DNA from: Candidatus Aminicenantes bacterium
Lineage (GTDB): Bacteria > Acidobacteriota > Aminicenantia > Aminicenantales > Saccharicenantaceae
Reading direction: 5' to 3'
Assembly: GCA_017883305.1 (NCBI GenBank)
Contig: JADGNU010000003.1
Location: 1-50,845 of the forward strand
DNA: 50,845 nucleotides
Positions 48,087 through 48,196 of the stretch are shown here, in pieces (position 1 is the stretch's first letter; the number at the start of each line of letters is the position of its first letter). A program made the translations under genes and the position numbers. The notes beneath the pieces are model-generated. The model did not search any database, was not told the origin of the DNA, and worked only from the letters and a program-made list of their open reading frames with translations.

Positions 48087-48115
48087 TTGACACCCCCGGT
48101 CAATCCGGCTTTACT
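48087..48115 (+). promoter_or_regulatory. Putative sigma70 promoter for the mini-ORF-tgt-yajC-secD operon
   Basis: Perfect TTGACA(48087-48092)-N17-TTTACT, ending 6 nt before GTG 48122. Confidence 0.55.
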
Positions 48116-48121
48116 AGTCCC

Positions 48122-48196
48122 GTGAACGCGACCCTGTTCGGCTGCCCTAAGACGGGCCAGACGACGCTGTTCGTCTATTTCCGGTTCGCCGCATGA
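48122..48196 (+). pseudogene. 24-codon remnant resembling an internally deleted ychF (Obg-family ATPase)
   Basis: Translates to (M)[23 protein letters not shown]. The first part resembles a YchF N-terminal P-loop; the last part resembles the YchF C-terminal xxFRF end. The stop overlaps the tgt ATG (ATGA). Confidence 0.6.

Follow-up and report, generated by a model that had tools for sequence, protein, structure and literature searches.

Directly in front of tgt, the gene for queuine tRNA-ribosyltransferase, an Aminicenantes-like genome carries a 24-codon open reading frame (ORF) that is almost certainly the remnant of a deleted ychF gene. In this order of Aminicenantes-like Acidobacteriota a YchF paralogue, here called B, leads a ychF-tgt-yajC-secD operon, and the comparison with intact relatives indicates that a single in-frame deletion of 999 nt produced the ORF as its scar. 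The best explanation overall, which we hold with moderate confidence, is that this scar of ychF B now serves only as a ribosome-delivery ORF for tgt. The window analysed here is a stretch of 50,845 nt (positions 1 to 50,845 of the forward strand of contig JADGNU010000003.1, assembly GCA_017883305.1), and positions given below are those of the window. Its own genome is designated G000; other genomes, loci, sequencing runs and contigs are referred to by numbers preceded by G, L, X and C, respectively.

Layout of the locus and the deleted gene

The mini-gene extends on the + strand from the GTG at 48122 to the TGA at 48196, as read from the ORFs of the window. It is preceded by a -35 hexamer TTGACA (48087..48092, + strand), present in 10 of 10 loci of the genus (nine times after CC and once after GG), and, after a spacer of 17 nt, by a -10-like hexamer TTTACT (48110..48115, + strand) separated from the start codon by exactly 6 nt. 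This promoter was not called by a sigma-70 consensus scan, which requires an A at the second position of the hexamer, here occupied by a T. Within the remnant, codons 1-17 of the lost gene, including a decayed P-loop with G-Q-T for G-K-T, occupy 48122..48172, the deletion junction, with a 2-nt TC microhomology at both break points, lies at 48171..48172, and the last seven codons of the lost gene together with its TGA fill 48173..48196, all on the + strand. This terminal segment is also the stretch ahead of tgt that is devoid of a Shine-Dalgarno (SD) motif, since none of GGAG, GAGG, AGGA or AAGG occurs within 25 nt before the tgt ATG.

The TGA of the remnant (48194-48196) overlaps the ATG of tgt (48193-48195) as ATGA, within the hexamer GCATGA at 48191-48196. 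The tgt gene itself (48193..49323, + strand) is recognized by PF01702 with E = 9.5e-143 and is followed by yajC (49320..49661, + strand), whose ATG overlaps the tgt TGA, and by secD (49724..50845, + strand), named from a reading of its protein and running past the end of the window. A reading of this DNA made from the sequence only had described the same 24-codon ORF, its position 6 nt past TTGACA-17-TTTACT, the overlap of its TGA with the tgt ATG and the lack of an SD proper to tgt; these coordinates and features have all been confirmed. A second ATGA overlap, at 49320-49323, links the stop of tgt to the start of yajC, which, unlike tgt, possesses an SD (of the AAGGA type).

Upstream of the locus lies a divergent signal peptidase I gene (47131-47832, - strand), 24 nt upstream of which a consensus promoter, TTGCCC-17-TATAAT, is found at 47857-47885 on the - strand. 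Between this region and the locus, a palindromic MITE/REP-like repeat of about 100 nt is located at 47930-48050 (within 47872-48084), with a predicted hairpin of -56 kcal/mol; copies are found on 14 contigs of the same genome and many in relatives. Contigs of X3 and X10, two of the sequencing runs, skip the 213 nt containing the repeat, which genome G051 also lacks, and the repeat can thus be regarded as a polymorphic insertion. The insertion ends 2 nt before the -35 hexamer.

The origin of the mini-gene became apparent from a blastn comparison of 47833-48300 with 40 relatives, in which the region was split into two blocks. The blocks, 48085-48172 and 48171-48300, lie on the same contig and 1.0-1.2 kb apart in 18 genomes of the same genus (table count), and a contiguous match was absent from all 23 matching genomes of the genus in that comparison; the left block, as bounded by blastn, ends at 48172 in 10 loci. 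In all 10 same-genus loci followed base by base, an intact ORF of 1071-1221 nt, free of internal stops, occupies the gap, its GTG lying exactly 6 nt after TTTACT and its TGA overlapping the tgt ATG. The promoter, the first 17 codons and the last seven codons that flank the intact YchF gene match the window in 10 of the 10. The protein encoded at L007, the closest locus, reaches 271.5 bits on TIGR00092 (cut-off 279.2) and is also recognized by PF06071 and PF01926. With respect to L007, the window lacks 999 nt, that is, 333 of 357 codons, and retains codons 1-17 plus the last seven, so that codons 18-350 have been removed from YchF paralogue B; both break points end in TC, and the junction can be placed anywhere in 48171-48173. 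Two of the intact tgt-linked genes, L013 and L016 (genomes G019 and G023), carry in-frame insertions in mid-gene, with lengths of 1158 and 1221 nt against 1074 nt, and such insertion-bearing ychF genes are matched by the HMM in two pieces.

Descent from YchF is documented by the orthologous position of the remnant and by ends that can be aligned with those of the intact genes, and, as judged from these alignments, the likeness to the YchF ends is not due to chance. The sequence-only reading had taken the peptide for the two ends of YchF fused in frame, with the P-loop Lys changed to Gln, and had pointed to the upstream neighbour of tgt in relatives; a full ychF is indeed found directly upstream of tgt, and both of its ends align to the peptide in 10 of 10 intact loci of the genus. 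At positions invariant in these 10 relatives, Tyr-8 is replaced in the remnant by Cys and P-loop Lys-13 by Gln. The Walker A or P-loop formula is GxxxxGK[ST], and the remnant, which reads G-C-P-K-T-G-Q-T, departs from it where 10 of 10 relatives have G-K-T. The full G domain, the helical insert and the TGS-like C-terminal domain are likewise missing, with 999 nt gone and 0 Pfam families in the 24-residue peptide, as expected at such a short length.

The scar is not confined to the genome of the window. In G051, which represents another species of the genus, 316 nt match contiguously with 96% identity and the same 24-codon ORF is present. Parts of the stretch also occur in 20 runs from nine studies, the organism labels given being permafrost or soil metagenomes. 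Logan contigs were compared at the junction for four runs from four studies (X1, X3, X4 and X10), one of which may be the source sample: one contig per run crosses 48172 (X1 record 8, X10 record 9, X3 record 18 and X4 record 26), extending far more than 31 letters on each side, and no joint or loose end is present at 48172 in the contigs of these four runs. Two scans of metagenome contigs with a variable gap, meant to catch frame-shifted alleles, returned 0 stretches from a collection that may omit records near this genome, a result with no bearing on rarity.

Two YchF paralogues and the repeated loss of one

The genome of the window also encodes an intact YchF, on contig C232, which scores 287.5 bits, above the TIGR00092 cut-off, and shares only 39% identity with the tgt-linked type. 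Two paralogues, A and B, have accordingly been labelled from the coordinates of their HMM matches, 2-5..368 for A and 7-8..367 for the tgt-linked B. The labels were checked by sequence in a subset, in which seven genes of family f3 share 65-75% identity with A and 38-42% with B, and the tgt-linked genes are 52-80% identical to B. The earlier reading had proposed that an in-frame deletion removed a near-universal ATPase gene; the in-frame deletion stands, at 999 nt, and the loss of the ATPase does not, as one of two paralogues was lost and the working YchF is the A gene on C232. That reading had itself suggested a search for another ychF in the genome.

A tally of 41 other genomes of the genus found B in 36 and A in 24. 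B is the only paralogue in 17 of the 41, ten of these 17 being at least 90% complete. The five genomes with no B are all at most 85% complete; G051, with its scar, is one of them, and the other four gave no usable match to the region. At the level of the order, 121 genomes, each at least 85% complete, were considered: most have a single YchF, of type B, and paralogue A occurs in roughly a quarter (hand tally). In families other than f6, 73 of the 81 genomes with a tgt match have B on the same strand, no more than about 25 nt upstream of tgt (hand tally). Among 80 loci of Tgt relatives from many phyla, YchF was directly upstream in only the two nearest, one of which is labelled Candidatus Aminicenantes. 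As for the spacing of the pair, the ychF stop and the tgt start overlap in the order outside family f6; within f6 the pair is loosened, the two genes being some 12-350 nt apart or, in several genomes, divergently oriented or widely separated. Taken as a whole, the lineage of the window has lost the widespread, operon-leading paralogue B and kept the accessory A. The clade has two old YchF paralogues, and where the second is present the widespread one can be lost.

In G051 the paralogue A gene (L099, G051:C4:440900-442900) is split by one frameshift near residue 227. It is otherwise 98-99% identical to the A gene of G000, and the frameshift could be an error of this 10-contig assembly; if real, it would make G051 a genome without an intact YchF.

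The same gene has been lost in parallel in two other lineages. B is absent before tgt in six genomes of family f3, three belonging to genus g3 and three to genus g24, and all six retain A; congeners that still have the B-tgt pair are G093, G124 and G111, and genome G116 (locus L141) was left out of this comparison. In g3, G118 has an ORF of 51 or 59 codons ending at ATGA, with a recognizable C-terminal remnant, and G026 has one of 30 or 38 codons, also ending at ATGA, with gaps of 45 and 18 nt relative to G118. In the third g3 genome, G070, the B start codon is joined in frame directly to the tgt ATG, and an ORF of at most six codons starts inside the putative -10. In g24, the arrangement TATACT / 6 nt / GTG is followed by an ORF ending at ATGA of 12 codons in G085 and of 11 codons in G149, which is 3 nt shorter; in G074 the start codon is gone and an A+U-rich leader of about 32 nt is left. 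A short ORF in frame to ATGA is therefore retained in four of the six genomes (G118, G026, G085 and G149), and no usable upstream ORF is found in two, G074 and G070, which implies that coupling through a remnant is not obligatory. Paralogue A is present in three of three loss events, and the loss of B would have been tolerable because A remained.

A candidate leaderless start and a proposed coupling to tgt

The B start is preceded, at a distance of 6 nt, by the hexamer TTTACT in the genus and in loci L018 and L020; in the same register the hexamer is TATACT in G111, TAGAAT in G040 and TAAAAT in G126, and the layout of -35, 17 nt, -10-like hexamer, 6 nt and RTG is likewise found in these two loci and three genomes. 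A strict rule, demanding a -35 with at least four of six matches, a spacer of 16-18 nt, T[ACT][ATG]A[ACT]T, exactly 6 nt and ATG or GTG, is satisfied by 15 of 20 order-level loci, from eight families, 19 of the 20 being readable, and in most of the 15 conforming loci the -35 matches TTGACA at six of six positions with a 17-nt spacer. The 6-nt spacer is constant in length and variable in sequence, so that the +1 would fall on the purine of the start codon. From this conserved geometry of promoter, 6 nt and RTG, a leaderless start at GTG 48122 is probable. Two points weigh against it: the T at the second position of TTTACT, for which the consensus scan did not call the promoter, and the report in PMC9031893 that GUG is a poor leaderless start in E. 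coli. An uncultured clade of soil and permafrost keeps a leaderless-type promoter before ychF across large evolutionary distances.

In G000 as a whole, crude first starts have a TANNNT ending exactly 6 nt upstream at a rate of 15.9 per 1000, against about 5 elsewhere, and leaderless genes seem to be fairly common in this genome. SD motifs precede 30% of crude starts, compared with 16% for a control window, and are most frequent 5-9 nt upstream; SD 4-mer statistics were used in place of the anti-SD tail, as the 16S gene of this genome is cut at model position ~873. Elsewhere in the window, glgA (46583, - strand) lacks an SD 4-mer and carries TAGAAT 9 nt ahead of its ATG.

According to the mechanism that we propose, transcription would start at the G of GTG 48122 and yield a leaderless mRNA, on which a 70S ribosome would initiate at the GTG and translate 24 codons of a meaningless peptide. 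Termination would take place on the UGA within AUGA and would be followed by re-initiation at the SD-less AUG of tgt. The deletions that survive would be those keeping promoter, start and frame. On the conserved geometry, the SD-less tgt and the repeated in-frame remnants, the balance tilts towards a role for remnant translation in tgt expression.

Once the deletion has been accepted as real, the main alternative is that translation of the remnant is irrelevant to tgt and that the frame was kept by luck, tgt starting alone from a 71-nt 5' leader, for instance by initiation independent of an SD or by 70S scanning. Scanning by 70S ribosomes from a 5' end devoid of structure has been described (PMC9031893), an in-frame outcome is expected by accident once in three times, and tgt manages in G074 with no upstream ORF and in G070 with at most six codons from inside the putative -10. 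It is nevertheless rather unlikely. Among eight length-changing events inferred by parsimony in three lineages, six left the B start in frame with ATGA (P ~0.02 against 1/3, binomial), the events having been defined post hoc on alignments of short, diverged DNA. Moreover, the deletion took 333 of 357 codons and yet spared the start region and the last seven codons.

Substitutions speak on both sides. Between G000 and G051 the promoter differs at 0 of 35 nt and the remnant at 7 of 75, all at codon positions 1 or 2 and seven of seven residue-changing (pN 0.137, pS 0), so that 6 of 24 residues differ with length, start and overlap unchanged; tgt differs at 31 of 1131 nt, with pN 0.011 and pS 0.077. 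The overall divergence of the remnant is close to the level predicted by the synonymous rate of tgt, which indicates that its peptide is drifting neutrally, as either of the two explanations would have it, in a lineage of genes whose intact B members are under purifying selection (pN/pS ~0.24-0.37). Runs X3 and X4 add one synonymous change and Q13P in the remnant, and X3 also F22S. That the ORF stayed open through 10 substitutions is what chance would give (P = 0.56), a figure compatible with an irrelevant remnant, and openness was rejected as a sign of selection because it is uninformative. Against irrelevance, the 10 variable sites are concentrated in the middle 34 nt, with 0 in the first 21 nt (P ~0.03 each, with boundaries set post hoc); this clustering away from the start is suggestive only. 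By the same comparisons, the deletion is dated after the split from G005 (tgt pS 0.19) and before that between G000 and G051 (pS 0.077).

It is very improbable that the 24 residues have a function of their own, as a small protein or as an attenuation-type leader peptide with a sensing role: an open frame has been kept in two genomes and four assemblies, but 6 of 24 residues differ between two close genomes without a synonymous change, and Q13P and F22S come in addition. Rfam gave nothing in 47800-48260 at E up to 1, no terminator-like site was found after the remnant on the + strand, and the RNA of 48122-48240 shows no excess of fold stability over shuffled sequences (z = +0.66). The remnant thus lacks the hairpin and terminator of an attenuation-type leader peptide, and its ORF overlaps tgt. 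The idea that translation of the remnant might unmask a buried tgt start was dropped for want of any special fold at this z value.

Finally, collapse or loss of the middle of ychF during assembly of the metagenome bin, for which the 358 contigs of G000, its completeness of 89.8% and the intact ychF on the short separate contig C232 could be invoked, is excluded, given that a microhomology of 2 nt offers the assembler no repeat to collapse, that contigs from four runs of four studies and a different genome, G051, carry the junction near 48172 intact, a point that the sequence-only reading had proposed to check by read mapping, and that the C232 gene is the other paralogue, 39% identical, with a different start and adjoining nuo-like membrane genes.

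Known coupled ORFs, engineered scars and implications

If coupling through the remnant is accepted, the closest counterparts are found in mycobacteria, where leaderless transcripts starting with small ORFs linked to the next gene by RTGA have been described (Shell et al., 2015, PMC4633059). In that report RTGA-coupled cases are over-represented, at 23 of 220 against 32 of 1000 random sites, and the coupled linkage is conserved and the peptide is not; a recent review (PMC12548453, 2025) presents such ORFs as possible ribosome-delivery devices. The ORF studied here resembles those of Shell et al., as described there, in having an RTG at the expected transcription start (in the present case placed from promoter geometry alone), a length within 5-50 codons (here 24) and a TGA within the next RTG, and in keeping its architecture between G000 and G051 while 6 of 24 residues differ. 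It is unlike them in its phylum, the Acidobacteriota (Aminicenantes-like), and in having a documented origin from the two ends of a deleted full-length gene. The features of the sequence fit this known class of leaderless, RTGA-coupled small ORFs, to which the remnant would belong with its transcript 5' end deduced. A concrete origin may in this way be offered for at least some leaderless coupled small ORFs, as what is left of the lost first gene of an operon. A full-text literature search, judged on titles and abstracts, brought up no report of a gene remnant retained in nature as a coupling ORF, a result that is no proof of absence.

From the point of view of descent, the remnant is akin to the YchF/Ola1 ATPases (TIGR00092, PF06071), its first 17 and last seven codons aligning to the orthologues; it differs from them in having lost 333 of 357 codons and in carrying Gln in place of the P-loop Lys (Pro in X3 and X4).

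An engineered parallel is provided by the in-frame scar peptide of the Keio deletions, of 34 residues and meant to maintain coupling, as described in PMC8547470. As in that scar, what is left of the deleted gene is its start and its 3' end in one frame, by which ribosomes would reach the downstream gene; unlike it, the present scar is natural, has 24 codons and has persisted through a species split. Geneticists design in-frame scars against polar effects, and the present scar is their counterpart in nature, with one event fixed in two species and parallel losses of the gene in two other lineages. According to PMC8547470, 34 residues are often insufficient against polar effects in E. coli, and the sufficiency of a 24-codon remnant is therefore not a given. 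The locus offers a small testable system for the dependence of an SD-less gene on an upstream ORF.

YchF has been reported to restrain the translation of leaderless mRNAs in E. coli (PMC8138138). If this activity were shared, the leaderless ychF operon could be autoregulated at its 5' end, the remnant could be a cis target keeping tgt and the Sec genes under the control of A, and coupled small ORFs might often be fossils of lost first genes; by analogy with E. coli, this is a speculative and doubtful extension.

A last comparison concerns the MIRU insertions of mycobacteria that keep coupling, mentioned in PMC12548453. As in those cases, a change in an operon would have been tolerated because translational coupling was preserved, with the difference that in the MIRU cases a repeat is inserted, whereas here a gene has been deleted.
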